From Octopus vulgaris (lineage: Eukaryota), in assembly GCA_951406725.2 (NCBI GenBank), contig OX597832.1:44454001-44518000 (forward strand): 64,000 bases of DNA, in the 5' to 3' direction. The notes under the pieces were generated by a model. That model did not search any database. It was not told the DNA's origin and worked only from the letters and a program-made list of their open reading frames with translations. A program made the position numbers and the translations under genes. Each line of letters begins with the position of its first letter. Within the stretch, counting starts at the first letter, position 1. This document shows, piece after piece, positions 809-62,862 of the stretch.

Positions 809-1969
809 TTATGTTGTAGGATTTGTTACTTTACCAATGAAATGGATAATTTTAGTTCGGTTGTCAACAATTAAAAATGTGAATGGGTGATTGACATCAA
901 AATCCATACAATTTAGAAAATAATCATCACACATCAAGCACCCAATATCAGTTGCAGCTGCAGCTTCCGTCCCTTCTTCATTAACATCAACAAATGCTTT
1001 ATGAAACATTTCACTGGCATAAATATTATTCTCACCACCAGTCATTCCAGATAAATCAGCTTTTAGAGGATCAAAAATATCAGGGAGTCCAAGGTTTTTC
1101 AAAACTTCAACCAACTGAAAACTACTCTCTAAACGAAATTTTGGCATATGTAATAGTAGACTCATCATTTTAAATCCTTTTCTGTCAACAATGTCTTTGA
1201 GAAATTGAGCATTAATCTCCTTCTCTAAAGCAGCAAGACCATTGATTTCATTGGGAAGAATTACAAACATACTAAATGCTTTTCCTATATAGGGTAACTC
1301 AACGACTTTATAGTTGTCGCTTATTTTGGTATTAAAATCTTCAGATGTATACATAAAATCATGAAATACAGTCTTGTCAGAACGTAAATAAAACTTTGTA
1401 GATTCTGTTGCATGTTCTGAGAATATTTTAGCCCACATTCCTTTAAAGTATACAGCATTAATAAGAACTAGAATTGATTGAGGTGTCAACCTTCCACTTT
1501 GTAACAGATCAGTAATTTTGTTATTTGTGTTATTCTTAACCCAATCATTAATAGTTATTCTTGTCTTCTCAGCATTTGTTATGAAGTCTACATTTTCAAT
1601 ATCTGAAAAGAAATATTTTACCATGTTGTTCTTGTAGTCTTCAGAAATAGGGAATATTTCACTGGCATACAAACGATTCACTGAATTGAATGTGACAAGT
1701 TTATCTGAGTTTTTCAAAAGTGAAAAATATTCTTTAAAAGCCAAAGCTACAGAATCTGGATTTGATGTTATCTTCAAAACATTTTCAATCTGTTTGGCAG
1801 AGTTTTGTCTTGCTCCCAAATAAACCATTGATAAAACAGTAGCAACACTGAATGGTGACATGAAGACATTTTCATTGGTTCCTGTAGCCACAGCTTGGTA
1901 AAGACTGTTTGTAAAATAATCAATTGAAGCAGCAAGGTTACCGATGTCTTGTTTCTCTGCTGAGTCCAT
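809..1969 (-). CDS. Serpin copy 1 (intact, 386 aa); RCL EEGTEAAAAT-DIGCLMC|DDYFLNC
   Basis: Serpin motifs SPFSV, INAVYFKGxW, hinge EEGTEAAAAT and signature FDVNHPFTFLI...FIGKVTNP in an uninterrupted ORF. Confidence 0.95.
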   Translation of the reverse strand: MDSAEKQDIGNLAASIDYFTNSLYQAVATGTNENVFMSPFSVATVLSMVYLGARQNSAKQIENVLKITSNPDSVALAFKEYFSLLKNSDKLVTFNSVNRLYASEIFPISEDYKNNMVKYFFSDIENVDFITNAEKTRITINDWVKNNTNNKITDLLQSGRLTPQSILVLINAVYFKGMWAKIFSEHATESTKFYLRSDKTVFHDFMYTSEDFNTKISDNYKVVELPYIGKAFSMFVILPNEINGLAALEKEINAQFLKDIVDRKGFKMMSLLLHMPKFRLESSFQLVEVLKNLGLPDIFDPLKADLSGMTGGENNIYASEMFHKAFVDVNEEGTEAAAATDIGCLMCDDYFLNCMDFDVNHPFTFLIVDNRTKIIHFIGKVTNPTT

Positions 1970-1986
1970 ATTGTATACGATAGTGT

Positions 1987-2030
1987 CTGGAGAATATAGA
2001 ATATGAAGAGAAAATATACGAAATAAATTC
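1987..2030 (-). promoter_or_regulatory. Putative 3' splice acceptor 17 nt upstream of the serpin ATG (conserved in all copies)
   Basis: Minus strand reads TTTTCTCTTCATATTCTATATTCTCCAG|ACACTATCGTATACAATATG, a pyrimidine tract plus YAG. Confidence 0.7.
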
Positions 2031-2550
2031 TTGCAAACATTTCAAAATAATTTATTAGACATTACTGTAATTAAAGACATCTATAAAAGCAAAGTCTGAA
2101 ATCTCTTCTGATCAAACTCTAATATTAACTTTTACATGAACATATTTCTTAACATAACACAGAGTTAATGTGTTTTAAACAGTTTTTAAAATAATTAAAA
2201 ATTTATATGATTAATTAATATAACCATTTTTTCTCCAATATTTATCTGATATTTGGCACATATCTTAAAAGTTTCATTTATAAGATGATGTTGGAACTTG
2301 TCCATGTTAGCATTTCAGAGACAAATTTGAATGGAGCAGGTTTAGTTTTCATTTTTTGCATATATGGTATCAATTACAATGATATACTCCACCTGCTGAG
2401 AGCCTGGTCAAATACTTGCAACAAAATGACATCCTCAAAAAAGGCCTTAATGTGCCTGGAGGTGATGTTGAACTAATTAGTGTAATACCAAGCTAGACCG
2501 GATCCTGTAAACCTAGACTCAATGGTTAATATTTAGTTTGTTGAATGACC

Positions 2551-2829
2551 TGTGGGATGACGTCAGCAGCTGGGTGCGTTGACCGGAAGCTGGGGCAACC
2601 GGAAGGGGTTGCTGTCAGGCGTGCGCAGGCAGCGGTCAATTGGGCCTTTCCAACGTGGGTCGTCCAAATGACAAGACGTGTGAGGACGGTCGCGAAGGGT
2701 CTGGATGAGCAGCTGCTATCTTTAGTGTTCGGGTTGGAGCTGTGTCGAAGGATTAGCTACCACAGAAGGGTCTCCATCACGAGGAAGAGAAGGTAGGTGC
2801 CTTTATATTCAAATAGTGCACACACCACA
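2551..2829. mobile_element. Solo LTR, 279 bp
   Basis: TGTGG...CCACA termini, 5-bp TSD TGACC, empty site at ~34514. Confidence 0.85.
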
Positions 2830-3589: not shown

Positions 3590-4452
3590 TATTTTATATT
3601 ATTGAGCAAAAGAAGATTTAGCAAAGGGAATAGCCCAAGAATGCCGTATAGATTGGAGAAATTTTTACTGTGATATATGTGCAGAATATTATGTTGCACA
3701 AAACATTAAGCTCGGAGGGCCAAACCGAATTGTAGAGATAGATGAAAGAGCGTTTGTTAGAAGAAAATATAATGTTGGCCATCAGGTTAAAACGCAGTGG
3801 GTTTTTGGTGCTTTGGAAAGGGATACTAGAAGATGGTATTTGGTGGCAGTGGAAGATCGGACTGCGGACACTCTTTTAGAAATTATACAAGAGCGTATAT
3901 AGCCTGGTACAACTGTAATTTCTGACCTCTGGCGTTCGTATAATACGCTCAATCAGCTAGGATATAGGCATTTGACTGTGAATCATCATCATCATCATCA
4001 TCATCGTTTAACGTCCGTTCTCCATGCTAGCATGGGTTGGACGGTTCGACCGGGGTTCTGGGAAGCCAGAAGGCTGCACCAGGCTCCAGTCTAATCTGGC
4101 AATGTTTCTACAGCTGGATGCCCTTCCTAACGCCAACCACTCCGTGAGTGTAGTGGGTGCTTTTTACGTGCCACCTGCACAGGTGCCATGCGGAGCTGGC
4201 AACGGCCACGGTCAGATTGGTGTATTTTATGTGCCACCGGCAATAAATTTTGTTGATCCGGTAACATTTGCCACAACCAACCACATAGAATGTTTATGGA
4301 AGCATGTAAAGAATCGTAACAAAAGAGAAAATGGAACAGCCCGAAATTTACTTCAATCCCATCTCATTGAATTCATGTGGCATTATGAATTTAAGGACGA
4401 AATCTTTGGAAAGTTATTGGAACAAATTCAACATCTATACCCATGCATTTGA
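3590..4452 (+). mobile_element. Merlin (IS1016/IS1595-like DDE) transposase relic interrupted by a SINE
   Basis: Translates as LGGPNRIVEIDERAFVRRKYNVG...QWVFGALER...I*PGTTVISDLWRSY...HLTVNH / NFVDPVTFATTNHIECLWKHVK. Confidence 0.85.
3983..4240 (-). mobile_element. SINE/RTE-tail family with (GAT)n tail (also ~12140-12355, 16320-16578, 21960-22366, 39630-40030, 56475-56637)
   Basis: Recurrent CCATGCTAGCATGGGTTGGACGG...CTGGATGCCCTTCCTAACGCCAACCACTCC block next to CAT repeats. Confidence 0.8.
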
Positions 4453-8859: not shown

Positions 8860-9250
8860 GCCCATGAGCAAATTATTGAATGGTTAAAAAGGTACAATCT
8901 TCTTTTCCAAAGACATACAACATCTCAAAAGAGTCCAGAAGCTGGCTACCCACATGGTTCTTGGTCTCAAGCATTTGTCTTATGAAGAAAGGCTGAAGAC
9001 GCTCGACCTTTATTCTCTAGAAAAACGCCGCCGCCGTGGTGATCTCATTCTCGCTCACAACATCATAAGCAGAAAGTGTAACCTCTCGAAAGAGCTGTTC
9101 TTCACTCCTGCTCCAGAGCATCGGCTGCGGGGTCACTCCAAAAGCTCTATCTGCGACGAATTCATCTCAATCGAAGGAGAGGGGCTTTCTCCGTCCGGGA
9201 TGCGGATCCATGGAATAAGCAGCCGGACGAGATAGTGAAGATGCCGACGA
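8860..9250 (+). mobile_element. CR1-clade LINE ORF2 3' fragment
   Basis: KDIQHLKRVQKLATHMVLGLKHLSYEERLKTLDLYSLEKRRRRGDLI...RLRGHS, typical of the CR1 RT C-terminus. Confidence 0.85.
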
Positions 9251-13135: not shown

Positions 13136-14297
13136 TTATGTTGAAGGATTTGTTACTTTACCAATGAAATGGATCATTTTAGTTCGGTTGTCAACAATTA
13201 AAAATGTGAATGGGTGATTGACATCAAAATCCATACGATTTAGAAAAAAATTATTACACAACAAGCACCCAAAATCAGTTGCAGCTGCAGCTTCCGTCCC
13301 TTCTTCATTAACATCAACAAATGCTTTATGAAACATTTCACTGGCATAAATATTCTTCTCACCACCAGTCATTCCAGATAAATCAGCTTTTAGAGGATCA
13401 AAAATATCAGAGAGTCCAAGCTTTTTCAAAACTTCACCCAACTTAAAACTACGCTCTAAACGAAATTTTGGCATATGTAAATCTAGACCCATCATTTGAA
13501 ATCCTTTTCTGTCAACAATGTCTTTGAGAAATTGAGCATTAATCTCCTTCTCTAAAGCAGCAAGACCATTGATTTCATTGGGAAGAATTACAAACATACT
13601 AAATGCTTCTCCTATATAAGGGTAACTCAACCACTTTATAGTTGTCGCTTATTTTTGTATTAAATCCTTCAGATATATACATAAAATCATGAGATACAGT
13701 CTTGTCAGAGCTTAAATAAAACTTTCTAGATGATGTTGCTTCTTCTGAGAATATTTCAGCCCACGTTCCTTTAAAGTACACAGCATTAATAAGAACTAGA
13801 ACCGATTGAGGTGTCAAACTTCCACTTGGTAACAGATCAGTAATTTTGTTATTTGTGTTATTCTTAACCCAATCATTAATAGTAATTCTTGTCTTCTCAG
13901 CATTTGTTATGAAGTCTACATTTTCAATATCTGAAAAGAAATATTTTACCATGTTGTTCTTGTAGTCTTCAGAAATAGGGAATTTTTCATTGGCGCACAA
14001 ACGATTCACTGAATTGGATGTGACGAGTTTATCTGAGTTTTTCAAAAGTGAAAAATATTCTTTAAAAGCTAAAGCTACAGAATCTGGATTTGATGTTATC
14101 TTCAAAATATTTTCAAACTGTTTGGCAGAGTTTTGTCTTGCTCCCAAATAAACCATTGATAAAACAGTAGCAACACTGAATGGTGACATGAAGACATTTT
14201 CATTGGTTCCTGTAGCCACAGCTTGGTAAAGACTGTTTGTAAAATAATCAATTGAAGCAGCAAGGTTACCGATGTCTTGTTTCTCTGCTGAGTCCAT
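13136..14297 (-). pseudogene. Serpin copy 2 with +1 frameshift near 13620 (possibly an assembly error); RCL AT-DFGCLLC|NNFFLNR
   Basis: ORFs 13599..14297 and 13136..13630 together give a full serpin; it reads TATAAGGGTAAC where paralogs read TATAGGGTAAC or TATAAGGTAAC. Confidence 0.85.
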
Positions 14298-14888
14298 ATT
14301 GTATACGATAGTGTCTGGAGAATATAGAATATGAAGAGAAAATATACGAAATAAATTCTTGCAAACATTTCAAAATATTTTATTAGACATTACTGTAATT
14401 AAAGACATCTATAAAAGCAAAGTCTGAAATCTCTTCTGATCAAACTCTAATATTAACTTTTACATGAATATATTTCTTAACATAACACAGAGTTAATGTG
14501 TTTTAAACAGTTTTTAAAATAATTAAAAATTTATATGATTAATTAATATAACCATTTTTTCTCCAATATTTATCTGATATTTGGCACATATCTTAAAAGT
14601 TTCATTTATAAGATGATGTTGGAACTTGTCCATGTTAGCATTTCAGAGACAAATTTGAATGGAGCAGGTTTAGTTTTCATTTTTTGCATATATGGTAAGA
14701 TAAGGTATCAATTACAACGATATATTCCACCTGCTGAGAGCCTGGTCAAATACTTGCAACAAAATGACATCCTCAAAAAAGGCCTTAATGTGCCTGGAGG
14801 TGATGTTGAACTAATTAGTGTAATACCAAGCTAGACCGGATCCTGTAAACCTAGACTCAATGGTTAATATTTAGTTTGTAGAATGACC

Positions 14889-23862: not shown

Positions 23863-23910
<48 letters not shown>

Positions 23911-24455: not shown

Positions 24456-24508
<53 letters not shown>

Positions 24509-46619: not shown

Positions 46620-47197
46620 TATATAGTATGTTGATTGATAACTTTTCAAAAGTTTTGTAGTAACACCACAATTATTAAATAAATGTAATTTTTTAATGAA
46701 GATCTAAGACTAAAATACCAGAGACTATCAAGAGGGCTGAAGAAGTTGAAATGTCAATATTTGGAACAAAGCTATTAAAAGCCAGATGCAATTAATGCAT
46801 ACATTAAAATGGAATATTTACTGAGATGCTTTATTAATATAAACAGAAATAAAAACATACAAGCATTGATTTCTCTTTATTTAACCAGTAAATAATGTTT
46901 ACAGGCAACAATAAGTATATTGTTAAAATAATAAACTTGCTAAGAAAAGACACTTTAAAAAGTGTAATATTTTTCTGTCAATATATGGCAAGTACAAATT
47001 GATAATATTGATTTAGATTAATGTGGTATTATAATATATCATTGAATAGATATGACCTTGGTTCTACATAGTTACAATTATAATGTCCTAAGTCATTTTA
47101 CTAAAAACAATTCTAAATAAATTTGCTCAGTTACATTCTCCACATAATACAATGTAGTATTCCATAAGAGGGAAATCTTTGACAGGGCAATATCATC

Positions 47198-48350
47198 TTA
47201 TGTTGTAGGATTTGTTACTTTACCAATGAAATGGATCATTTTAGTTCGGTTATCAACAATTAAAAATGTGAATGGGTGATTGACCTCAAAATCCATACCA
47301 ATTTGTGCGGAAACTGCCATCACGACCATTCCAGTTGCAGCAGCAGCTTCCGTTCCTTCTTCATTAACATCAACAAATGCTTTATGAAACATTTCACTGG
47401 CATAAATATTCTTCTCACCACCAGTCATTCCAGATAAATCAGCTTTTTGAGGATCAAAAATATCAGAGAGTCCAAGCTTTTTCAAAACATCACCCAACTG
47501 AAAACTACTCTCTAAACGAAATTTTGGCATATTTAATTCTAGAAGCATCGTTTGAAATCCTTTTCTGTCCACAATGTCTTTGAGAAATTGAGCATTAATC
47601 TCCTTCTCTAAAGCAGCAAGACCATTGATTTCATTTGGAAGAATTACAAACATACTAAATGCTTTTCCAATATAAGGTAACTCAACAACTTTATAGTTGC
47701 TGCTTATTTTTGTATTAAAATCTTCAGATATATACATAAAATCATGAGATACAGTCTTGTCAGAGCTTAAATAAAACTTTCTAGATGATGTTGCTTGTTC
47801 TGGGAATTTTTCAGCCCACATTCCTTTAAAGTACACAGCATTAATAAGAACTAGAACCGACTGAGGTGTCAAACTTCCACTTGGTAACAGATCAGTAATT
47901 TTGTTATTTGTGTTATTCTTTACCCAATCATTAATAGTAATTCTTGTCTTCTCAGCATTTGTTATGAAGTCTACATCTTCAATATCTGAAAAGAAATATT
48001 TTACCATGTTGTTCTTGTAGTCTTCTGAAATAGGGAATTTTTCATTGACGCACAAACGATTCACTGAATTTAATGTGACAAGTTTCTCTGAGTTTTTGAG
48101 AAGTGAAAAATATTCTTTAAAAGCTAAAGCTACAGAATCTGGATTTGATGTTATCTTCAAAACATTTTCAAACTGTTTGGCAGAGTTTTGTCGCTCCCAA
48201 ATAAACCATTGATAAAACAGTAGCAACACTGAATGGTGACATGAAGACATTTTCATTGGTTCCTGTAGCCACAGCTTGATAAAGACTGTTTGTAAAATAA
48301 TCAATTGAAGCAGCAAGGTTACCAATGTCTTGTTTCTTTGCTGAGTCCAT
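47198..48350 (-). pseudogene. Serpin copy 7 with 2-bp deletion at ~48192 (possibly an assembly error); RCL AT-GMVVMAV|SAQIG
   Basis: Span is 1153 bp versus 1155 bp for intact copies; TTTTGTCGCTCCC versus TTTTGTCGCGCTCCC in copy 11. Confidence 0.85.
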
Positions 48351-48896
48351 ATTGTATACGATAGTGTCTAGAGAATATAGAATATGAAGAGAAAATATAC
48401 AAAATAAATTCTGGCAAATATTTCAGTACATTGTAGAAGACATCTATGAAAGCAATGTCCGAAATCTCTTCTGTTCAAACTTTAAATTTAACTTTTACAT
48501 CAACATATTTCGTACGGTAACACTCAATATGATTTAAATAGATTTTAAAATAATAAAAAATTTATAAGATTTAATGATATAACCATTTCTTTCTTCCATT
48601 CGTTATCTGGCATTTGGAACATACCTTAAAATGATGTTGAAATGTTTTAGCTTAAATACGGTGATTATTTTCAAAATAGATTTGAACATTATGTATTACA
48701 TTTAGAATACAGTAAGGAAACAATAAAATTTGGGTTTTTGCATAAATCATTTCAGACGATTTTCATACAGAATTCTTAGATCACATTAGTGTGTTTTACA
48801 CTCTCTTGAAATATTAAACAGAAACTGTTTTTCAGGAAATTCTTCTGCATTTCATCTCTTCATATTGTATATTCTTCAGATGCCAGGGAAAACAAT

Positions 48897-49308
48897 ATGG
48901 ACTCAGCAAAGAAACAAGACATCGGTAACCTCGCTTCTTCAGTTGATTACTGTACAAACATTCTTTTTCAAGCTTTGTCTATAGGAACCGTTGAAAATGT
49001 TTTCATGTCACCATTCAATGTTGCTACCGTTTTATCAATGGTTTATTCTGGAGCAAGACAAAACTCTGCCAAACAATTTGAAAATAACTTTAAATACAGA
49101 TCCTGTAATTTGGGGTTTTAAAGAATATTTTTCACTTTTGAAACACTCAGATGAACTTATTGCATTGAATTCAGTTAATTGTTTTAGTGCCAATGAAAAA
49201 TTTCGTATTTCAGAAGACTAAAAGAACATTATTGCAAAATATTTCTTTTCAGATATTGAAAATGTAGACTTCTTAAGAAATGTTGAAAAAGGAAGAATTA
49301 ATATTAAT
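48897..49308 (+). pseudogene. Inverted serpin 5' fragment followed by a truncated SINE
   Basis: ORFs 48897 and 48991 translate to the serpin N-terminus with a frameshift and stop. Confidence 0.9.
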
Positions 49309-50208
49309 TACCATGTTGTAAGGCAACGAGATGCTAGAATTGTTAGTATGCTGGGCAAAATACTTAGTAGCACTTTGTCCATCTTTACATTCTGGTGTTG
49401 ACATTGTCATTCTTTTGGGATTGGAAAAATAAGTACCAATTGAGCACTTGTGTTGCTGTAATTGATTTACCCCTACAATTAAATTAAATCTCATTACTGA
49501 TTCTCGGTCTAATTAAAGGTATAACATTTCGGAAAATATATCAGACATTGTCATTGCTACCTTCAGAATGCCAAACTTAATACATAATTAATCAGAGAGT
49601 TTGTAACGTAACCACATATATGCATGGTATGAATATGGTACATTGGCTGTTAACTTTTCAAAAGTTTTGTAACACCACAATTATTGAATCAATGTAATTT
49701 TTTGATCAAGATCTAAGACTAAAATACCAGAGACTATCAAGAGGGCTGAAGAAGTTGAAATGTCTACATTTGAAACAAAGCTAATAAAAGCCAGATGCAA
49801 TTAACACATACATTAAAATGGAATATTTACTGAGATGCTTTATTAATATAAACAGAAATAAAAACATACAAGCATTGATTTCACTTTATTTAACCAGTAA
49901 ATAATGTTTACAGGCAACAATAAGTATATTCTTAAAATAATAAGCTTGCTAAGAAAAGACACTTTAAAAAGTGTCAAATTTTTCTGTCAATGTATGGCAA
50001 GTACAAATTCATAATATTGATTTAGATTAATGTGGTATTATAATATATAAATGAATAGATATGACCTTGGTTCTACACGATTTCAACTGTAATGTCCTCA
50101 GTCATTTTACTAAAAAAACGATTCTAAAAATATTTGCTCAGTTACATTCTCCACATAATATAATGTAGTATTCCATAAGAGGGAAATCTTTGACAGGGCA
50201 ATATCATC

Positions 50209-51363
50209 TTATGTTGTAGGATTTGTTACTTTACCAATGAAATGGATCATTTTAGTTCGGTTGTCAACAATTAAAAATGTGAATGGGTGATTGACATCAA
50301 AATCCATACCAATTTGTGCTGACATTAACGTCATGACCATTCCAGTTGCAGCAGCAGCTTCTGTTCCTTCTTCATTAACATCAACAAATGCTTTATGAAA
50401 CATTTCACTGGCATAAATATTCTTCTCACCACCAGTCATTCCAGATAAATCAGCTTTTAGAGGATCAAAAATATCAGAGAGTCCAAGCTTTTTCAAAACT
50501 TCACCCAACTGAAAACTACTCTCTAAACGAAATTTTGGCATATTTAATTCTAGAAGCATCGTTTGAAATCCTTTTCTGTCTATAATATCTTTGAGAAATT
50601 GAGCATTAATCTCCTTCTCTAAAGCAGCAAGACCATTGATGTCATTGGGAAGAATTACAAACATACTAAATGCTTTCCCTATATAAGGTAACTCAACCAC
50701 TTTATAGTTGTCGCTTATTTTTGTATTAAAATCTTCAAATTTATACATAAAATCATGAGATACAGTCTTGTCAGAGCTTAAATAAAACTTTCTAGATGAT
50801 GTTGCTTGTTCTGGGAATTTTTCAGCCCACATTCCTTTAAAGTACACAGCATTAATAAGAACTAGAACCGACTGAGGTGTCAAACTTCCACTTGGTAACA
50901 GATCAGTAATTTTGTTATTTGTGTTATTCTTTACCCAATCATTAATAGTTATTCTTGTCTTCTCAGCATTTGTTATGAAGTCTACATTTTCAATATCTGA
51001 AAAGAAATATTTTACCATGTTGTTCTTGTAGTCTTCTGAAATAGGGAATTTTTCATTGGCACACAAACGATTCACTGAATTGAATGTGACAAGTTTATCT
51101 GATGTTTTCAAAAGTGAAAAATATTCTTTAAAAGTCAAAGCTACAGAATCTGGATTTGATGTTATCTTCAAAACATTTTCAAATTGCTTGGAAGAGTTTT
51201 GTCTTGCTCCCAAATAAACCATTGATAAAACAGTAGCAACACTGAATGGTGACATGAAGACATTTTCATTGGTTCCTGTAGCCACAGCTTGATAAAGACT
51301 GTTTGTAAAATAATCAATTGAAGCAGCAAGGTTACCAATGTCTTGTTTCTTTGCTGAGTCCAT
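50209..51363 (-). CDS. Serpin copy 8 (intact, 384 aa); RCL AT-GMVMTLM|SAQIG
   Basis: Complete ORF with all serpin motifs. Confidence 0.95.
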   Translation of the reverse strand: MDSAKKQDIGNLAASIDYFTNSLYQAVATGTNENVFMSPFSVATVLSMVYLGARQNSSKQFENVLKITSNPDSVALTFKEYFSLLKTSDKLVTFNSVNRLCANEKFPISEDYKNNMVKYFFSDIENVDFITNAEKTRITINDWVKNNTNNKITDLLPSGSLTPQSVLVLINAVYFKGMWAEKFPEQATSSRKFYLSSDKTVSHDFMYKFEDFNTKISDNYKVVELPYIGKAFSMFVILPNDINGLAALEKEINAQFLKDIIDRKGFQTMLLELNMPKFRLESSFQLGEVLKKLGLSDIFDPLKADLSGMTGGEKNIYASEMFHKAFVDVNEEGTEAAAATGMVMTLMSAQIGMDFDVNHPFTFLIVDNRTKMIHFIGKVTNPTT

Positions 51364-51909
51364 ATTGTATACGATAGTGTCTGGAGAATATAGAATATGA
51401 AGAGAAAACATACAGAATAAATTCTGGCAAACATTTTAGTATATTGTAGAAGACATCTATGAAAGCAATGTCTGAAATCTCTTCTGTTCAAACTTTAAAT
51501 CTAACTTTTACATGAACATATTTTGTACGGTAACACTCAATATGATTTAAATAGATTTTAAAATAATTAAAAATTTATAAGATTTAATAATATAACCATT
51601 TCTTTCTTCCATTCTTTATCTGGCATTTGGCACATACCTTAAAATGATGTTGAAATGTTTTAGCTTAAATACGGTGATTATTTTCAAAATAGATTTGAAC
51701 ATTATGTATTACATTTAGAATACAGTAAGGAAACAATAAAATTTGGGTTTTTGCATAAATCATTTCAGACGATTTTCATACAGAATTCTTAGATCACATT
51801 AGTGTGTTTTACACTCTCTTGAAATATTAAACAGAAACTGTTTTTCAGGAAATTCTTCTGCATTTCATCTCTTCATATTGTATATTCTTCAGATGCCAGG
51901 GAAAACAAT

Positions 51910-52322
51910 ATGGACTCAGCAAAGAAACAAGACATCGGTAACCTCGCTTCTTCAGTTGATTATTGTACAAACAGTCTTTTTCAAGCTGTGTCTACAGGAA
52001 CCGTGGAAAATGTTTTCATGTCACCATTCAATGTTGCTACCGTTTTATCAATGGTTTATTCTGGAGCAAGACAAAACTCTGCCAAACAATTTGAAAATAA
52101 CTTTAAATACAGATCCTGTAATTTTGGTTTTTAAAGAATATTTTTCACTTTTGAAACACTCAGATGAACTTATTGCATTGAATTCAGTTAATTGTTTTAG
52201 TGCCAATGAAAAATTTCGTATTTCAGAAGACTAAAAGAACATTATTGCAAAATATTTCTTTTCGGATATTGAAAAGGTAGACTTCATGACAAATATTGAA
52301 AAAGGAAGAATTAATATTAATT
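51910..52322 (+). pseudogene. Inverted serpin 5' fragment followed by a truncated SINE
   Basis: ORFs 51910 and 51878; same lesions as the 48897 fragment. Confidence 0.9.
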
Positions 52323-53222
52323 ACCATGTTGTAAGGCAACGAGATGCTAGAATTGTTAGTATGCTGGGCAAAATACTTAGTAGCACTTTGTCCATCTTTA
52401 CATTCTGGGGTTGACATTGTCATTCTTTTGGGATTGGAAAAATAAGTACCAATTGAGCACTTGTGTTGCTGTAATTGATTTACCCCTACAATTAAATTAA
52501 ATCTCTTTACTGATTCTCGGTCTAATTAAAGGTATAACATTTCGGAAAATATATCAGACATTGTCATTGCTACCTTGAGAATACCAAACTTAATACATAA
52601 TTAATCAGAGAGTTTGTAACGTAACCACATATATGCATGGTATGAATATGGTACATTGGCTGTTAAGTTTTCAAAAGTTTTGTAACACCAAAATTATTGA
52701 ATCAATGTAATTTTTTAATGAGGATCCAAGACTAAAATACCAGAGACTATCAAGAGGGCTGAAGAAGTTGAAATGTCTACATTTGAAACAAAGCTAATAA
52801 AAGCCAGATGCAATTAACACATACATTAAAATGGAATATTTACTGAGATGCTTTATTAATATAAACAGAAATAAAAACATACAAGCATTGATTTCACTTT
52901 ATTTAACCAGTAAATAATGTTTACAGGCAACAATAAGTATATTCTTAAAATAATAAGCTTGCTAAGAAAAGACACTTTAAAAAATGTCAAATTATTATGT
53001 CAATGTATGGCAAGTACAAATTCATAATATTGATTTAGATTAATGTGGTATTATAATATATAAATGAATAGATATGACCTTGGTTCTACACGATTACAAC
53101 TGTAATGTCCTCAGTTATTTTACTAAAAAAACGATTCTAAAAAATATTTGCTCAGTTACATTCTCCACATAATACAATGTAGTATTCCATAAGAGGGAAA
53201 TCTTTGACAGGGCAATATCATC

Positions 53223-54377
53223 TTATGTTGTAGGATTTGTTACTTTACCAATGAAATGGATCATTTTAGTTCGGTTATCAACAATTAAAAATGTGAATGG
53301 GTGATTGACATCAAAATCCATACCAATTTGTGCTGACATTAACGTCATGACCATTCCAGTTGCAGCAGCAGCTTCTGTTCCTTCTTCATTAACATCAACA
53401 AATGCTTTATGAAACATTTCACTGGCATAAATATTCTTTTCACCACCAGTCATTCCAGATAAATCAGCTTTTAGAGGATCAAAAATATCAGAGAGTCCAA
53501 GCTTTTTCAAAACTTCACCCAACTGAAAACTACTCTCTAAACGAAATTTTGGCATATTTAATTCTAGAAGCATCGTTTGAAATCCTTTTCTGTCTATAAT
53601 ATCTTTGAGAAATTGAGCATTAATCTCCTTCTCTAAAGCAGCAAGACCATTGATGTCATTGGGAAGAATTACAAACATACTAAATGCTTTCCCTATATAA
53701 GGTAACTCAACCACTTTATAGTTGTCGCTTATTTTGGTATTAAAATCTTCAGATATATACATAAAATCATGAGATACAGTCTTGTCAGAGCTTAAATAAA
53801 ACTTTCTAGATGATGTTGCTTGTTCTGGGAATTTTTCAGCCCACATTCCTTTAAAGTACACAGCATTAATAAGAACTAGAACCGACTGAGGTGTCAAACT
53901 TCCACTTGGTAACAGATCAGTAATTTTGTTATTTGTGTTATTCTTTACCCAATCATTAATAGTTATTCTTGTCTTCTCAGCATTTGTTATGAAGTCTACA
54001 TTTTCAATATCTGAAAAGAAATATTTTACCATGTTGTTCTTGTAGTCTTCAGAAATAGGGAATTTTTCATTGGCACACAAACGATTCACTGAATTGAATG
54101 TGACAAGTTTATCTGATGTTTTCAAAAGTGAAAAATATTCTTTAAAAGCCAAAGCTACAGAATCTGGATTTGATGTTATCTTCAAAACATTTTCAAATTG
54201 CTTGGAAGAGTTTTGTCTTGCTCCCAAATAAACCATTGATAAAACAGTAGCAACACTGAATGGTGACATGAAGACATTTTCATTGGTTCCTGTAGCCACA
54301 GCTTGATAAAGACTGTTTGTAAAATAATCAATTGAAGCAGCAAGGTTACCAATGTCTTGTTTCTTTGCTGAGTCCAT
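53223..54377 (-). CDS. Serpin copy 9 (intact, 384 aa); RCL identical to copy 8
   Basis: Complete ORF; differs from copy 8 at about 3 residues. Confidence 0.95.
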   Translation of the reverse strand: MDSAKKQDIGNLAASIDYFTNSLYQAVATGTNENVFMSPFSVATVLSMVYLGARQNSSKQFENVLKITSNPDSVALAFKEYFSLLKTSDKLVTFNSVNRLCANEKFPISEDYKNNMVKYFFSDIENVDFITNAEKTRITINDWVKNNTNNKITDLLPSGSLTPQSVLVLINAVYFKGMWAEKFPEQATSSRKFYLSSDKTVSHDFMYISEDFNTKISDNYKVVELPYIGKAFSMFVILPNDINGLAALEKEINAQFLKDIIDRKGFQTMLLELNMPKFRLESSFQLGEVLKKLGLSDIFDPLKADLSGMTGGEKNIYASEMFHKAFVDVNEEGTEAAAATGMVMTLMSAQIGMDFDVNHPFTFLIVDNRTKMIHFIGKVTNPTT

Positions 54378-54923
54378 ATTGTATACGATAGTGTCTGGAG
54401 AATATAGAATATGAAGAGAAAACATACAAAATAAATTCTGGCAAACATTTCAGTATATTGTAGAAGACATCTTTGAAAGCAATGTCTGAAAGCTCTTCTG
54501 TTCAAACTTTAAATTTAACATTTACATGAACATATTTTGTACGGTAACACTGAATATGATTTAAATAGATTTTAAAATAATTAAAAATTTATAAGATTTA
54601 ATAATATAACCATTTCTTTCTTCCATTCTTTATCTGGCATTTGGAACATACCTTAAAATGTTGTTGGAAGGTTTTAGCTTAAATACGGTGATTATTTTCA
54701 AAATAGATTTGAACATTATGTATCACATTTAGAATACAGTAAGGAAACAATAAAATTTGGGTTTTTGCATAAATCATTTCAGACCAATTTCACATAGAAT
54801 TCTTAGATCACATTAGTGTGTTTTACACTCTTTTGAAATGTTAAATAGAAACTGTTTTTCAGGAAATTCTTCTGCATTTCATCTCTTCATATTGTATATT
54901 CTTCAGATGCCAGGGAATACAAT

Positions 54924-56231
54924 ATGGACTCAGCAAAGAAACAAGACATCGGTAACCTCGCTTCTTCAGTTGATTATTGTACAAACAGTCTTTTTCAAGC
55001 TGTGTCTACAGGAACCGTGGAAAATGTTTTCATGTCACCATTCAGTGTTGCTACCGTTTTATCAATGGTTTATTCTGGAGCAAGACAAAACTCTGCCAAA
55101 CAATTTGAAAATATTTTGAAAATAACTTTAAATGCAGATCCTGTAATTTTGGTTTTTAAAGAATATTTTTCACTTTTGAAACACTCAGATGAACTTATTG
55201 CATTGAATTCAGTTAATTGTTTTAGTGCCAATGAAAAATTTTGTATTTCAGAAGACTAAAAGAACATTATTGCAAAATATTTCTTTTCGGATATTGAAAA
55301 TGTAGACTTCATGACAAATATTGAAAAAGGAAGAATTAATATTAATTACAATGTTGTAAGGCAACGAGATTCTAGAATTGTTAGTATGCTGGGCAAAATA
55401 CTTAGTAGCACTTTGTCCGTCTTCACATTCTGGGGTTGACTTTGTCATCGTTTTGGGTTTGACAAAATAAGTACCAATTGAGCAGTTGTGTTGCTGTAAT
55501 TGATTTACCCCTACAATTAACCTGCTGGACTTACACCAAAATTTGAAAGCAGTTTTAATGATTGAGCTGAAAGTAACACAAATAACAAAATTACCGATCT
55601 GTTACCAAGTGGAAGTTTGACACCTCAGTCGGTTCTAGTTCTTATTAATGCTGTATACTTTAAAGGAATATGGGGTGAAGTATGCCCAGAACTACCAACA
55701 TCATCTAGAAAGACAATTTTAGCACAAAAATAAGCAACAGCTCTACAGTTGTTGAGTTACCTTATATAGGAGAAGCATTTAGTATGTTTGTAATTCTTCC
55801 CTATGAAATCAATGGCCTTAATGCTTTAGTGAAGGGTAAGTAATTCCCAATTTCTCAAAGGCATTGTAGACAGAAAAGGATTTGAAATGATACAGCTAGA
55901 ATTAAATATGCCAAAATTTCGTTTAGAGAGTAGTTTTCAGTTGGGTGATGTTTTGAAAAAGCTTGGACTCCCTGATATTTTTGATCCTCTAAAAGCTGAT
56001 TTATCTGGAATGACTGGTGGTGAGAAGAATATTTATGCCAGTGAAATGTTTCATAAAGCATTTGTTGATGTTAACGAAGAAGGAACAGAAGCTATGGCTG
56101 TAATTAGAGAAGGATGATATTTTCATCAGCATACCTGAGGCAATGTTAATCAAGCATTCACAATTATAATTGTTGACAACTGAGGTATAATGATCCATTT
56201 CATTGGTAAAGTTACAAACCCTACAATATAA
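54924..56231 (+). pseudogene. Near full-length inverted serpin pseudogene with SINE insertion (~55355-55550) and a degenerate RCL (EEGTEAMAVIREG*)
   Basis: ORFs 54924 and 55887, and a terminal CATTTCATTGGTAAAGTTACAAACCCTACAATATAA (HFIGKVTNPTI*). Confidence 0.92.
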
Positions 56232-58681
56232 GATATTGCCCTGTCAAAGATTTTCCTCTTATGGAATATTACATTGCAATACATAGAGAATGTAACTGAG
56301 CAAATTTTATCCAACATCCTCGTTTTCAAATAAGTCTTGCAGTAAGTACTGAGCCCGAAGATTGCTTGGAGACATATGGCATGTTATATAAATCTGCCAA
56401 ATTAATGTACCTCTACAGTCTGAAAACGTTAGTAGCTATTTTATAAATTTCTGTACATACTAAATGATATATTATCATCATCATTTAGCGTCCGCTTTCC
56501 ATGCTAGCATGGGTTGGACGGTTCAACTGGGGTCTGTGAAGCCAGAAGGCTGCATGAGGCCCAGTCTGATCTGGCATTGTTTCTACGGCTGGATGCCCTT
56601 CCTAATACCAACCACTCCGTGAGTGTAGTGGGTGCTTTATATATATAATATATATATATACAATTGTCATTAATTGTGTTGATGATGCAGAGTATCACCT
56701 ACATTGCTAGAAATTAGAGCTAAAAGCCCTGATAGCTGCAGGAAGCACATGTCTATACACTGAGAGGGGAAATAACCACCCTACAAAGAGTGGGATCACC
56801 ATACTAGTTTCGTTTTGCTTGGAATTAAAGCCCATCAATTGTGCCTACTCCATTGCTTGATGGTTTGGATAAATCCCAGCTGTCAGTATATAGAATTTAC
56901 CATACGAATCAATGCATGATTCAGCAAAATGGTAATGTGAAAATTATAAGAGGACAAAGGTAGCTAAATGTAATATAAAAGCAAAAATGAAAGATTCAGT
57001 TGTCACTAACTGTGATTGAGAGTACAGGGTAGCTTTCACGTTACTAGAAATAAGAGCTAAAATACCTTACAGCCATCTACAGTTCTGCTTCATCTGAAGA
57101 CCTTGGTACAATCAAGATGACTTACCCTACTTTGTATAAAGCATCTTTACAAGATTCCTTCTTACTCTGGAGCAATGTCCCTCAGAAACTGCACATATTC
57201 CTCTAATCTGCACAATCCAACTATAGGAAAACTGAGCTTTCTTATTGTTTCCACCAATGGCATACCCTCTTAAAGATTTTTAAATCACTCATTACTGATA
57301 TGCAAACCAAGGCAAATTCATGCGTAACCTGACACCATGAAGACTTTCTTCTTTTCTCTACAACAATATTTGTGACATTTAAATTTCCCTCTAAGAAAAA
57401 AATATATTTGTGTTGAAAATATATTCTCAAACCATATTTTCTTTTAATTTATTTAAGTTAAGATGAATATTATATTACTTTATCTATGAGGTCTGATCAA
57501 AAATTATCAGGCCTTGTGCTACAAAAAAAAAACTACAACATATTAATTCAGCATTTAATCCACTTTGAAGTAGTCCCATTCTGAAGCCACACAAATGACC
57601 CAACATCATTTCCATTGATGGAAGCATTATGTATCATACACAGTATAAACACATCAAAAAAGATCAATTTACAGCAGTATATATCTCCAGATAATACACT
57701 ATAAGATCTTGTTGCATTTAGAAATATAATATGTATCAAAGGCAGATGAAAATTGTTCTAGCTGCAACTGGTAAGTATGCTAAATTCATTTCTGCCTCAT
57801 CTAAGCAGGTGGTTGGCTATGAGTATATAGTATTGACAACATATATACACAAATGGATGTGTACATATGTTTATTCAAATATTTTTTTATATGGAAATGT
57901 TGGTTTGTAGATATTAAATGAAACCTCATTCCTGGAATTTCAGTAACACCAACAAAACTTAAAAAGTATATAAGAATTTCTTTACTGATTCTTGGTCTAA
58001 TTAAAGGTATAACATTTCAGAAAAAATATTAGACATTTTCTTTTCTAACTTCAGAATGCCAAACTTACTACATTATTAATTACAGAAGTTGTAACATAAC
58101 CACATGTATGCATAGTATGTATATGTATGTGGTATGTTGGTTGATTACTTTTCAAAAGTTTTGTAACACCAAATTACATCAATGTAATTTTTTAATGAAG
58201 ATCTAAGACAAAAATACCAGAGATTAACAAGAGGGCTCAAAATATCGAAACGTCTACATTTCAAAGAAAGCTAATAAAAGCCAGATGCAATTAACACATG
58301 CATTAAAATGGAATATTTACTGAGATGCTTTATTAATATAAACAGAATCAAAACTTACAGGCATTGATTTCACTTTATTTAACCAGTAAATAATGTTTAC
58401 AGGCAACAATAAGTATATTCTTAAAATAGTAAACTTGCTAAGAAAAGACACTAAAAAGTGTCGTATTTTTCTGTCAATATATGGCATATACAAATTGATA
58501 ATATTGATTTAGATTAATGTGGTATTATAATATATCAATGAATAGATATGACCTTGGTTCTACACAATTACAATTATAATGTCCTCAGTCATTTTGCTAA
58601 AAATATTTGTTCAGTGACATTCTCCACATAATACAATGTAGTATTCCATAAGAGGGAAATCTTTGACAGGGCAATATCATC

Positions 58682-59836
58682 TTATGTTGTAGGATTTGTT
58701 ACTTTACCAATGAAATGGATCATTTTAGTTCGGTTATCAACAATTAAAAATGTGAATGGGTGATTGACATCAAATTTCATACCAATTTTTGCACAGAATC
58801 CCACCATGACCATTCCAGCTGCAGCAGCAGCTTCCGTTCCTTCTTCATTAACATCAACAAATGCTTTATGAAACATTTCACTGGCATAAATATTCTTCTC
58901 ACCACCAGTCATTCCAGATAAATCAGCTTTTAGAGGATCAAAAATATCAGGGAGTCCAAGCTTTTTCAAAACTTCACCCAACTGAAAACTACTCTCTAAA
59001 CGAAATTTTGGCATATTTAATTCTAGAAGCATCGTTTGAAATCCTTTTCTGTCCACAATATCTTTGAGAAATTGAGCATTAATCTCCTTCTCTAAAGCAG
59101 CAAGACCATTGATTTCATTTGGGAAGAATTACAAACATACTAAATGCTTTTCCTATATAAGGTAACTCAACAACTTTATAGTTGTCGCTTATTTTTGTAT
59201 TAAAATCTTCAGATATATACATAAAATCATGAGATACAGTCTTGTCAGAGCTTAAATAAAACTTTCTAGATGATGTTGCTTGTTCTGGGAATTTTTCAGC
59301 CCACATTCCTTTGAAGTATACAGCATTAATAAGAACTAGAACCGATTGAGGTGTCAAACTTCCACTTGGTAACAGATCAGTAATTTTGTTATTTGTGTTA
59401 TTCTTACCCAATCATTAATAGTTATTCTTGTCTTCTCAGCATTTGTTATAAAGTCTACATTTTCAATATCTGAAAAGAAATATTTTACCATGTTGTTCTT
59501 GTAGTCTTCTGAAATAGGGAATTTTTCACTGGCATACAAACGATTCACTGAATTGAATGTGACAAGTTTATCTGAGTTTTTCAAAAGTGAAAAATATTCT
59601 TTAAAAGCCAAAGCTACAGAATCTGGATTTGATGTTATCTTCAAAACATTTTCAAACTGTTTGGCAGAGTTTTGTCTTGCTCCCAAATAAACCATTGATA
59701 AAACAGTAGCAACACTGAATGGTGACATGAAGACATTTTCATTGGTTCCTGTAGCCACAGCTTGATAAAGACTGTTTGTAAAATAATCAATTGAAGCAGC
59801 AAGGTTACCGATGTCTTGTTTCTCTGCTGAGTCCAT
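58682..59836 (-). pseudogene. Serpin copy 10 with a -1 (~59405) and a +1 (~59120) indel, possibly assembly errors; RCL AA-GMVMVGF|CAKIG
   Basis: Three ORF pieces spanning exactly 1155 bp; no nonsense codons in the serpin frames. Confidence 0.85.
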
Positions 59837-60383
59837 ATCGTATATGATAGTGTCTAGAGAATATAGAATATGAAGAGAAAATATACAAAATAAATTCTGG
59901 CAAATATTTCAGTATATTGTAGAAGACATCTATGAAAGCAATGTCTGAAATCTCTTCTGTTCAAACTTTAAATCTAACTTTTACATGAACATATTTTGTA
60001 CAGTAACACACAAGGTGTTTAAAACAGTTTTTATAATAATTAAAAATTTATAAAGATTTAATGATATAACCATTTCTTTCTTCCATTCTTTATCTGGCAT
60101 TTGGAACATACCTTAAAATGTTGTTGGAAGGTTTTAGCTTAAATACGGTGATTATTTTCAAAATAGATTTGAACATTATGTATCACATTTAGAATACAGT
60201 AAGGAAACAATAAAATTTGGGTTTTTGCATAAATCATTTGAGACCATTTTCAAACAGAATTCTTAGATCACATTAGTGTGTTTTACACTCTCTTGAAATA
60301 TTAAACAGAAACTATTTTTCAGGAAATTCTTCTGCATTTCATCTCTTCATATTGTATATTCTTCAGATGCCACGGAATAGAAT

Positions 60384-60808
60384 ATGGACTTAGCAAAGAA
60401 ACAAGACTTCGGTAACCTCGCTGCTTCAGTTGATTATTGTACAAAGAGTATTTTTCGAGTTGTGTCTACAGGAACCGTGGAAAATGTTTTCATGTCACCA
60501 TTCAGTGTTGCTACCGTTTTATCAATGGTTTATTCTGGAGCAAGACAAAACTCTTCCAAACAATTTGAAAATATTTTGAAAATAACTTTAAATACAGATC
60601 CTGTAATTTGAGGTTTTAAAGAATATTTTTCACTTTTGAAACACTCAGATGAACTTATTGCATTGAATTCAGTCAATTGTTTTTGTGCCAATGAAAAATT
60701 TCGTATTTCAGAAGACTAAAAGAACATTATTGCAAAATATTTCTTTTCAGATATTGAAAATGTAGATTTCATGAGAAATGTTGAAAAAAGAAGGATTAAT
60801 ATTAATTA
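60384..60808 (+). pseudogene. Inverted serpin 5' fragment followed by a truncated SINE
   Basis: ORF 60384 MDLAKKQDFGNLAASVDY..., followed by stops. Confidence 0.9.
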
Positions 60809-61707
60809 CCATGTTGTAAGACAACAAGATGCTAGAATTGTTAGTATGCTGGGCAAAATACTTAGTAGCACTTTGTCCATCTTTACATTCTGGGGTTGAT
60901 GTTGTCATCCTTTTGGGTTTGACAAAATAGATACGAATTGAGCACTTGTGTTGCTGTAATTGATTTACCCCTACAATTAAATTAAACCTCTTTACTGATT
61001 CTTGGTCTAATTAAAGGTATAATGTTTCAGAAAATATATCAGACATTGTCATTGCTACATTCAGAATGCCAAACTTACTACATAATTAATTAGAGAGTTT
61101 GTAACGTAACCACACATATGCATGGTATGAATATGGTACATTGGCTGTTAACTTTTCAAAAGTTTTGTAACACCACAATTATTGAATCAATGTAATTTTT
61201 TGATCAAGATCTAAGACTAAAATACCAGAGACTATCAAGAGGGCTGAAGGAAGTTGAAATGTCTACATTTGAAACAAAGCTAATAAAAGCCAGATGAAAT
61301 TAACACATACATTAAAATGGAATATTTACTGAGATGCTTTATTAATATAAACAGAAATAAAAACATACAAGCATTGATTTCACTTTATTTAACAAGTAAA
61401 TAATGTTTACAGGCAACAATAAGTATATTCTTAAAATAATAAACTTGCTAAAAAAAGACACGTTAAAAAGTGTCATATTTTTCTGTCAATATATCGCACA
61501 TACAAATTCATGATATTGATTTAGATTAATGTGGTATTATAATATATAAATGAATAGATATGACCTTGGTTCTACATGATTATAATTATAATGTTCTAAG
61601 TCATTTTACTAAAAAAACGATTCTAAATATATTTGTTCAGTTACATTCTCCACATAATACAATGTAGTATTCCGTAAGAGGGAAATCTTTGACAGGGCAA
61701 TATCATC

Positions 61708-62862
61708 TTATGTTGAAGGATTTGTTACTTTACCAATGAAATGGATCATTTTAGTTCGGTTGTCAACAATTAAAAATGTGAATGGGTGATTGACATCAAA
61801 ATCCATACCAATTTGTGCTGACAATGCCATCATGACCATTCCAGTTGCAGCAGCAGCTTCCGTTCCTTCTTCATTAACATCAACAAATGCTTTATGAAAC
61901 ATTTCACTGGCATAAATATTCTTCTCACCACCAGTCATTCCAGATAAATCAGCTTTTAGAGGATCAAAAATATCAGGGAGTCCAAGCTTTTTCAAAACAT
62001 CACCCAACTGAAAACTACTCTCTAAACGAAATTTTGGCATATTTAATTCTAGAAACATCGTTTCAAATCCTTTTCTGTCTATAATGTCCTTGAGAAATTC
62101 AGCATTAATCTCCTTCTCTAAAGCAGCAAGACCATTGATTTCATTTGGAAGAATTACAAACATACTAAATGCTTTTCCAATATAAGGTAACTCAACGACT
62201 TTATAGTTGTCGCTTATTTTTGTATTAAAATCTTCAGATATATACATAAAATCATGAGATACAGTCTTGTCAGAGCTTAAATAAAACTTTCTAGATGATG
62301 TTGCTTGTTCTGGGAATTTTTCAGCCCACGTTCCTTTGAAGTATACAGCATTAATAAGAACTAGAACCGATTGAGGTGTCAAACTTCCACTTGGTAACAG
62401 ATCAGTAATTTTGTTATTTGTGTTATTCTTTACCCAATCATTAATAGTTATTCTCGTCTTTTCAGCATTTGTTATAAAGTCTACATTTTCAATATCTGAA
62501 AAGAAATATTTTACCATGTTGTTCTTGTAGTCTTCTGAAGTAGAGAATTTTTCATTGGCATACAAACGATTCACTGAATTGAATGTGACAAGTTTCTCTG
62601 AGTTTTTGAGAAGTGAAAAATATTCTTTAAAAGCCAAAGCGACAGAATCTGGATTTGATGTTATCTTCAAAACATTTTCAAACTGTTTGGCAGAGTTTTG
62701 TCGCGCTCCCAAATAAACCATTGATAAAACAGTAGCAACACTGAATGGTGACATGAAGACATTTTCATTGGTTCCTGTAGCCACAGCTTGATAAAGACTG
62801 TTTGTAAAATAATCAATTGAAGCAGCAAGGTTACCGATGTCTTGTTTCTTTGCTGAGTCCAT
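61708..62862 (-). CDS. Serpin copy 11 (intact, 384 aa); RCL AT-GMVMMAL|SAQIG
   Basis: Complete ORF with all serpin motifs. Confidence 0.95.
   Translation of the reverse strand: MDSAKKQDIGNLAASIDYFTNSLYQAVATGTNENVFMSPFSVATVLSMVYLGARQNSAKQFENVLKITSNPDSVALAFKEYFSLLKNSEKLVTFNSVNRLYANEKFSTSEDYKNNMVKYFFSDIENVDFITNAEKTRITINDWVKNNTNNKITDLLPSGSLTPQSVLVLINAVYFKGTWAEKFPEQATSSRKFYLSSDKTVSHDFMYISEDFNTKISDNYKVVELPYIGKAFSMFVILPNEINGLAALEKEINAEFLKDIIDRKGFETMFLELNMPKFRLESSFQLGDVLKKLGLPDIFDPLKADLSGMTGGEKNIYASEMFHKAFVDVNEEGTEAAAATGMVMMALSAQIGMDFDVNHPFTFLIVDNRTKMIHFIGKVTNPST

Follow-up and report, generated by a model that had tools for sequence, protein, structure and literature searches.

The subject here is a 64,000-nucleotide (nt) stretch of the Octopus vulgaris genome (assembly GCA_951406725.2, OX597832.1, positions 44,454,001-44,518,000, forward strand; hereafter the window) and the array of serpin-coding bodies that it holds. 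We examined it together with 90 kb of adjoining DNA to its left and 40 kb to its right, 194 kb in all; positions above 64000 carry the window numbering on into the adjoining DNA. Six-frame translation and BLAST searches with the last copy recovered ten full-length serpin bodies and one fragment reduced to the reactive centre loop (RCL) on the minus strand at 809-62862, and six degenerate partial serpin copies on the plus strand inside the window. Names r1-r11 correspond to copies 1-11 of a preliminary description of this DNA, while B, C, E, F and A+ denote bodies left of the window. In the list that follows, bodies are entered as the terminal exons of the gene model proposed below, and a slash in a loop sequence marks the P1/P1' bond.

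809-1986, minus strand: r1 terminal exon, intact, 386 amino acids (aa); RCL TDIGCLMC/DDY; splice acceptor at 1986/1987
13136-14314, minus strand: r2 terminal exon, broken by a +1 shift at codon 226; RCL TDFGCLLC/NNF
24868-25043, minus strand: r3 mini-exon of 58 codons; acceptor and five codons fused in frame to hinge, RCL SGMVVSNY/MSR and C-terminus
26835-28005, minus strand: r4 terminal exon, broken by TGA at codon 179 and a -1 shift at codon 279; RCL SGMVVSNY/MSR
28534-29566, plus strand: degenerate partial copy, inverted and head-to-head with r4, whose acceptor it covers as an antisense arm
32211-33391, minus strand: r5 terminal exon, intact, 387 aa; RCL SGMERRKV/SGR
42459-43630, minus strand: r6 terminal exon, intact, 384 aa; RCL SGMVVSNY/MSR; best match of Octopus sinensis isoform X3 (P0001)
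46393-46623, plus strand: short inverted degenerate serpin fragment, a 231-nt arm 2.7 kb from the r6 acceptor
47198-48367, minus strand: r7 terminal exon, broken by a -2 shift at codon 53, the same frame switch as in O. sinensis P0122; RCL TGMVVMAV/SAQ
48829-49308, plus strand: partial copy in inverted orientation, forming an antisense arm that spans the r7 acceptor (complementarity 82%, distance 410 nt)
50209-51380, minus strand: r8 terminal exon, intact, 384 aa; RCL TGMVMTLM/SAQ
51842-52321, plus strand: partial copy in inverted orientation, whose antisense arm spans the r8 acceptor with a complementarity of 83-86%
53223-54394, minus strand: r9 terminal exon, intact, 384 aa; RCL TGMVMTLM/SAQ
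54856-56231, plus strand: longest inverted degenerate copy; first 491 nt 85% complementary to the r9 acceptor region
58682-59853, minus strand: r10 terminal exon, broken here by a -1 shift at codon 144 and a +1 shift at codon 240; RCL AGMVMVGF/CAK
60316-60806, plus strand: partial copy in inverted orientation, whose antisense arm of 491 nt spans the r10 acceptor with a complementarity of 83%
61708-62879, minus strand: r11 terminal exon, proximal, intact, 384 aa; RCL TGMVMMAL/SAQ; exact transcript contigs, one ending at its acceptor
62880-64000, minus strand: 3' end of the first intron, which continues beyond the window to two shared single-copy 5' exons
donor at G000:C19:44521456, minus strand, outside the window: ATG-less 5' exon, 4.6 kb upstream
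G000:C19:44529209-44529348, minus strand, outside the window: leader exon (23 codons), donor at 44529209, 12.3 kb upstream

The preliminary description had reported 11 RCL-bearing serpin segments on the minus strand between 809 and 62862, and both search methods bear this out. Six of the 11 are intact and carry five distinct RCLs; four bodies (r2, r4, r7 and r10) are broken, and copy 3, with its acceptor joined straight to hinge, loop and C-terminus, is no serpin copy but an RCL-only fragment, an internal-deletion product that is probably a deletion relic. In r3 and in a copy near G000:C19:44436193 the acceptor is intact and in the leader frame, from which an 81-aa peptide of leader, hinge, loop and C-terminus is predicted. 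The array is also not bounded at 809: left of the window it continues with four more full minus-strand bodies (B, C, E and F, with E broken) and a second RCL-only fragment, so that the whole comprises 14 full bodies, nine intact and five broken, with eight distinct loops among the intact ones. Co-orientation was correctly seen for all 11 segments, but the splice acceptors, the six inverted partial copies and the two shared 5' exons had been overlooked.

Each body is an intronless block of about 1.17 kb that holds the whole serpin domain, and the spacers between bodies measure about 1.9 kb at the shortest and over 10 kb at the longest. We take the r7 break to be genuine because the frame of O. 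sinensis P0122 shifts at the corresponding point. For r2 and r10, whose indels involve single bases, errors of assembly may be the cause, and O. sinensis has an unbroken r10 (P0135). A 17.5-kb direct duplication of 99.5% identity (60 mismatches) relates window 17599-35140 to G000:C19:44428755-44446304 and carries E and r4, F and r5, and both RCL-only fragments; three of its 60 mismatches, all non-synonymous, fall inside the 48-nt loop of F/r5. This duplication may be recent or an uncollapsed haplotype, and the remaining long repeated blocks are only 93-98% alike.

All three bodies tested match the Pfam family Serpin (PF00079) at E values of 1e-106 to 1e-111 over profile positions 4-370 of 370, and serpins in the PDB match at 1e-68. 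The nearest named proteins come from Octopus species (90-92% identity), with vertebrate serpin B matches reaching only about 36-41%. Scaffolds are nearly identical, as previously stated (88-99%, mean 92%, among the nine intact bodies), and the RCLs average 30% identity. The eight distinct RCLs, their P1/P1' letters counted from the hinge glutamate as P17, and the lengths of 384, 386 and 387 aa were likewise correctly given, with the proviso that P1 of the 386-aa forms depends on the placement of a one-codon gap and could lie one residue earlier. The protease target of a serpin is set mainly by P1: L, M, Y and F direct it to chymotrypsin or elastase-like enzymes, and an R/K-rich loop possibly to trypsin or convertase-like ones. 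The most variable scaffold sites (184-189, 208, 211 and 267-272) align beside Y253, E255 and H319 of antithrombin, which we take to be sheet-C exosite residues; exosites may therefore vary along with the loop. The inhibitory-type hinge recognized earlier is invariant, P17-P9 reading EEGTEAAAA without amino-acid change in all 15 full bodies, the plus-strand gene A+ included, with P8 being T or S in 14 of them and A in r10. It fits the inhibitory consensus for P17-P9, E[EKR]G[TS].(AGS)4, set out in a passage of PMC2770083, and each product is therefore predicted to be a suicide-substrate inhibitor. A single-sequence AlphaFold model of r5 had a mean pLDDT of 38 and was not used.

The array appears to share its 5' end. 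A hydrophobic leader of 23 residues opens several Octopus homologues, proteins of 410-413 aa. Its coding part, at 75210-75278 on the minus strand, is 12.3 kb upstream of r11 and terminates in a phase-1 donor. This leader has no second minus-strand copy in the 194 kb, and a genome-wide DNA search with it gave three matches: the array leader itself, the leader of A+ (80% identical to it) and a weak 58-nt match on C4. Judged by hydropathy, it is predicted to be a signal peptide, with a core whose 9-residue mean reaches 2.8 and a T-V-S end at the exon junction that is compatible with the (-3,-1) cleavage rule. A poly-T tract and TAG precede the leader exon upstream of G000:C19:44529348 (minus strand), and one leader contig holds about 26 letters beyond the 140-nt exon, so that a further non-coding exon probably lies upstream. 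The second 5' exon, single-copy in the genome, has its donor GTAAGC next to 67457 and no ATG in the 345 nt upstream; splicing of this ATG-less exon would explain leaderless 384-aa forms.

On the receiving side, all 14 full bodies have a pyrimidine tract and an AG exactly 17 nt before their ATG, in phase 1 with the leader donor, and all 14 have their own stop followed by AATAAA or ATTAAA 207-365 nt downstream. Diagnostic bases near the start of the exon set some bodies apart: r6 at exon bases 2, 5, 7, 8, 9 and 15, r5 and F at 7, 9 and 10, r10 at 9 and 15, and r7-r9 at 44. The upstream intron sequence common to the repeats extends only about 280-290 nt before the acceptor (60 nt for r6). In a sister cluster, two close-match bodies have one leader each; the ancestral gene therefore looks like a leader plus one coding exon, of which only the coding exon appears to have multiplied in the array.

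Transcript data came from four Logan contig sets (of 24 runs listed; three studies, two organisms), compared with 43450-63449. The sets were taken as RNA by guess, each junction is one contig, contigs cannot rank expression, and 253 further loose-end rows lie outside those inspected; neither contig depth nor the lack of contigs over a body was taken as evidence on expression. In three of the four runs a contig stops matching at an acceptor and continues as the 3' end of the leader, identical or one base off; these loose ends are 163, 26 and 127 letters long, and their motif is found only at 75212 (G000:C19:44529212) within the 194 kb. The ATG-less exon is joined in one of the four runs, where a contig runs past the r11 acceptor by 15 letters that match at a single place, 67457. 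Long exact contigs cover r11 in the organism A runs, one of them ending at its acceptor, and contigs cover the 3' regions of r7-r10, relatives being placed at the best-fitting site. Among the differences over 43450-63449, plus-strand T>C (A>G in serpin orientation) ranks first in two of the runs, at 13 of 41 and 23 of 60 places, and not in the other two (2 of 22 and 6 of 55); adenosine-to-inosine (A-to-I) editing and repeat noise are both possible sources.

Annotated proteins of two related species bear on the use of several bodies. In O. sinensis, isoforms X1, X2 and X3 carry one common leader and best match r11, r10 and r6 (8, 15 and 15 differences), following the array order, while X4 is a leaderless X1. 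X3 departs from X1 at residues 26, 27 and 29, right past the junction, and at 30 positions overall. In Octopus bimaculoides, P0003 and P0005 have the same leader on bodies 30 positions apart. The RefSeq models already file three bodies as isoforms of one name. Among three candidates for short transcript-derived proteins that join the leader to differing body starts there was one match, and it is without the leader.

Rates of loop and scaffold evolution were estimated on the nine intact bodies, with the RCL taken as P8 to the loop end (16 codons). The proportions of non-synonymous and synonymous differences (pN/pS) are 0.457/0.284 in the RCL and 0.037/0.078 in the scaffold, and pN in the hinge is 0. 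The scaffold evolves under constraint, with a dN/dS ratio (omega; non-synonymous over synonymous rate) of 0.36 (p 5e-10 against 1). An excess of dN over dS in the loop, as the active diversification proposed earlier would require, is borderline: RCL pN is 12 times scaffold pN, but RCL omega on a local tree is 2.5 (p 0.07), or 1.6 (p 0.22) with 14 sequences including the broken ones and A+. Over all RCL-only fits, omega spans 1.0-3.0 with p from 0.03 to 0.9. Model M2a beats M1a (p 4e-22, sites P7-P3'), a result we do not accept as proof of selection because the likelihood of the RCL is much higher on its local tree (lnL -313) than on that of the scaffold (-358) and recombination, which is significant here (incompatibility permutation test, p = 0.0005; scaffold alone, 0.002), inflates such tests. 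Non-synonymous and synonymous loop changes in close, non-independent pairs number 3 and 0 for F versus r5, 6 and 0 for r1 versus r2, and 0 and 1 for r4 versus r6.

A protein tree without the loop (38 rows; E, identical to r4, was omitted) places three O. bimaculoides bodies outside a clade (96/94) of 25 bodies of our own and O. sinensis. Loop types follow another pattern: the L/S loop is identical and the Y/M type shared across three Octopus species, Argonauta has a near-identical AM/SAQ loop, and the r6, r8/r9, r10 and r7 loops are identical in O. sinensis. Such conservation of proximal RCL types across Octopus species does not agree with the lineage-specific panel previously envisaged. The distal loops (r1, r2, r5, B, C and F) have no identical counterpart among the O. 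sinensis proteins examined, which do include the proximal loop types, together with six sequences whose loops are of distal type. Scaffolds cluster within species, yet certain RCL types are retained between species, a pattern that fits gene conversion among blocks with selection at the reactive centres; both processes at serpin reactive centres are treated in part of a review (PMC3966226).

Six bodies (E, r4, r7, r8, r9 and r10) have a degenerate copy beside them, head-to-head. The arms of r7-r10 are about 490 nt long, 82-86% complementary, lie 410 nt from their partner and span the acceptor; each antisense arm would be transcribed before its partner, and pairing with the acceptor is predicted. 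No upstream arm accompanies r11. Predicted folding energies are -580 to -632 kcal/mol for regions with arms and -287 and -314 for two controls, one of which, r5, also had a paired acceptor, so that folding alone shows no regulation. A silencing effect of the arms on acceptors is plausible; their association with broken bodies (four of six against one of eight, Fisher p = 0.09; with the duplicate collapsed, three of five against one of seven, p = 0.22) is not significant. An antisense blastn search of 11.7 kb of the first intron against 16 acceptor flanks of 600 nt, aimed at docking and selector sequences of the PGRP-LC type, returned only a dispersed repeat and an 18-nt match (E 0.32, in four flanks); short pairings would escape blastn.

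What lies at this locus is thus a shared pair of 5' exons, each spliced to an acceptor of the array, and a series of recombining blocks with an invariant hinge and hypervariable RCLs. We consider it probable that these parts make up one gene, in which two single-copy 5' exons are combined with 14 alternative whole-serpin terminal exons (nine intact) bearing different bait loops; our confidence stops there because the use of several bodies rests on the annotation of other species.

A number of observations weigh against this one-gene reading. The leader contigs do not single out one body: a CAG common to the sequences accounts for those placed at r8 or r9, the single long leader contig has 10, 12, 13 and 16 differences per 686 nt to r10, r9, r8 and r11, and the runs are, as said, only guessed to be RNA, with one contig per junction. 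A low-depth contig shows a GT-AG joint from the spacer at 54652 to a serpin acceptor, so that internal 5' exons exist. The evidence from O. sinensis and O. bimaculoides consists of protein names and sequences, not of gene ids or exon coordinates. X2 has the sequence of X1 through residue 246 and may represent a chimeric model or a converted body; the LC/S body of O. bimaculoides has the leader in P0005, another 5' end in P0139 and none in P0140; and the O. sinensis annotation treats at least nine more array proteins as products of separate '-like' genes with no leader. Five of the 14 bodies are broken. The case for selection on the loops is weakened by a raised RCL pS (0.28 against 0.08 in the scaffold), by an RCL omega of 1.0 on the scaffold tree, and by seven fits with free branch lengths, in which omega ranged from 1.4 to 3.0 and p from 0.03 to 0.52, only two being below 0.05 and one three-sequence fit reaching the upper bound of omega. 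As to the spacer itself, the segment 54652-54912 (minus strand) has a GT donor at 54651, and O. sinensis P0122 uses a neighbouring spacer exon.

Several of these points could also be accommodated by one working gene with a mostly silent tail, in which the 5' exons would be joined essentially only to r11, the other blocks being debris or RCL donors by conversion and the arms aiding silencing. Only r11 is covered by long exact contigs in the organism A runs, and the five broken bodies (with the r7 break shared with O. sinensis), the antisense arms over the acceptors of r4, r7, r8, r9, r10 and E, and the significant recombination are all in keeping with such a tail. We nevertheless judge it unlikely, given the low scaffold omega and unchanged hinge of the nine intact bodies, though conversion from r11 could mimic both, the loops of r6, r8/r9, r10 and r7 kept identical in O. 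sinensis, isoform X3 with its distinct junction, and the contigs over the 3' regions of r7-r10, though relatives go to the best-fitting place.

The comparison with rodent Serpina1/a3 in the preliminary description implies instead independent tandem serpin genes, which would have their own promoters in the spacers and yield mostly leaderless cytosolic proteins starting from MDS. Every body does have its own ATG, nine of 14 have a complete open reading frame, the O. sinensis annotation lists at least nine separate genes, and both the low-depth internal joint and the spacer- or repeat-derived 5' exons of P0122 and P0139 agree with independent starts. This model appears distinctly improbable to us, however, because the two 5' exons demonstrated occur once each and outside the repeats, one leader serves 14 bodies, the leader frame of the acceptor is kept in all 14, and the duplicated unit, which lacks a leader exon, has only about 290 nt of upstream sequence in common within spacers of about 1.9 kb to more than 10 kb.

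Still further from the data is an assembly artefact, with haplotypes placed in tandem and indel errors creating copy number, loop variants and breaks. Such errors might produce the 99.5% identity between the two 17.5-kb copies and the one-base indels in r2 and in r10, which is intact in O. sinensis, yet the other long repeats are only 93-98% alike, an independent O. sinensis set has the same proximal loops and six distal-type sequences, and the r7 break is common to both species; an artefact would explain at most one duplication and two or three breaks, and we find it very hard to credit as an account of the array. A multi-domain serpin polyprotein, suggested by models of 571, 1126 and 1736 aa, is rejected since every body has its own stop and polyadenylation signal; model P0125 simply runs into the broken r10 frame.

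Under the one-gene reading, a single coding exon would have been duplicated in tandem without its leader. Transcripts would begin to the right of the window, have either the leader or the ATG-less exon joined to a single acceptor, and finish at the polyadenylation site of the chosen block. Splicing of the leader would give secreted forms of 413-416 aa and splicing of the ATG-less exon cytosolic forms of 384-387 aa. The proximal block r11 would be the default, distal blocks being reached by skipping upstream acceptors and polyadenylation sites. Gene conversion would homogenize the scaffold while selection keeps RCL types apart, and each block's product would trap a different protease, with P1 as the main determinant; the proteases of pathogens, of prey or of the animal's own saliva named in the preliminary description would be candidate targets. 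A defensive role in blood or mucus is our guess; portions of earlier studies report serpin transcripts in O. vulgaris hemocytes (PMC4199593) and one octopus serpin that rose with parasite load (PMC5736919), whether from the array or from another locus. More tentatively, and with appreciable doubt as to the whole, we suggest a new design that arose independently in octopuses: secreted and cytosolic 5' exons spliced across up to 118 kb to about nine whole-domain exons would provide 16-18 inhibitors on a scaffold kept uniform by conversion, with loops stable proximally and turning over distally, and with acceptor-pairing inverted duplicates that act as silencers, possibly A-to-I edited, and set exon choice.

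Other serpins lie near the array and elsewhere in the genome, where our search counts are lower bounds. A+ is a separate plus-strand gene at G000:C19:44400545-44403887, converging on the array, with its own leader, an RCL of SGMVAMAM/SVQ and an O. sinensis orthologue, P0138. Further intronless bodies occur at G000:C19:53833557-53859000, C19:30561582-30562658 and C1:20062514-20070322; near 53.85 Mb, each of the two close-match genes has a single leader, and their O. sinensis counterparts have a non-canonical hinge, EKGTDAHAAS. Within the window, 3606-4452, 16350-16772 and 35520-35816 hold fragments that resemble an IS1595/Merlin-type DDE transposase, and the open reading frame pieces at 8888-9235, 21311-21640 and 38984-39313 resemble decayed LINE-type retroelements; the four window reading frames tested (3606, 4012, 8888 and 21311), among them two pieces of each kind, had no Pfam match.

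If the one-gene reading is true, the locus represents a third route to serpin diversity, between the RCL-exon cassettes of insects and the gene clusters of mammals, in animals whose immune diversification is little known. It would also correct annotation, whose models here merge as many as five serpin loops in one protein or break the array up into genes without a leader. Nearly identical scaffolds with different loops form a natural panel for specificity studies, and both the choice of a terminal exon over more than 100 kb and the part played by antisense duplicates and RNA editing become testable questions. The preliminary description knew of no cephalopod precedent, and our literature search, with most subscription journals outside its coverage, found none either, nor any published description of whole-domain serpin cassettes; we also found no paper on the Octopus RefSeq models of this locus.

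Those models (P0001, P0129, P0135, P0127 and P0003), named 'leukocyte elastase inhibitor' by automatic annotation, apparently represent the orthologous locus. Vertebrate leukocyte elastase inhibitor of clade B (ov-serpin) has no cleavable signal peptide and a multi-exon coding region; in the octopus array a leader exon is present and a single exon encodes the domain. The serpin P0016 of Amphioctopus fangsiao (62% identical) falls in a sister group, whose genes have one leader each in G000. Rodent Serpina1/Serpina3 and mammalian SERPINB3/B4 are, like the octopus array, tandem whole-domain duplicates with hypervariable reactive centres, a subject reportedly studied by Hill and Hastie (1987) and by Ohta (1994). 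The rodent cluster genes are independent and multi-exon, each with its own promoter and leader, whereas the octopus array has one 5' exon set. In these clusters, as in the octopus, conversion and selection lift both dN and dS of the loop, according to studies cited in a section of PMC3966226.

In its architecture the array also resembles Drosophila PGRP-LC and pipe, described in a passage of PMC6191721 as joining a constant 5' part to one of several duplicated 3' cassettes with a proximal bias; PGRP-LC is, moreover, a one-gene immune repertoire, although in a different protein family. Docking-selector pairing operates in PGRP-LC and pipe; at the octopus locus the blastn search gave no convincing counterpart, short pairings being beyond its reach, and long antisense arms lie over acceptors. 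Among serpins, Drosophila Spn42Da (Spn4), Manduca sexta serpin-1 and Pteromalus PpSerpin-1 follow the same logic, as sections of PMC2770083, PMC10513286 and PMC3966226 relate, and the octopus locus would be a functional parallel to these systems, not a member of them. In the insects the serpin core is shared and the cassette begins at the end of the hinge (44-50 aa in PpSerpin-1), whereas the octopus cassette comprises the complete domain of 384-387 aa, leaving only the leader in common. A scaffold that is itself part of the cassette would therefore be kept alike by conversion and selection, with sheet-C residues free to vary along with the loop, and we infer that the octopus design arose independently of the insect and nematode cassette serpins.

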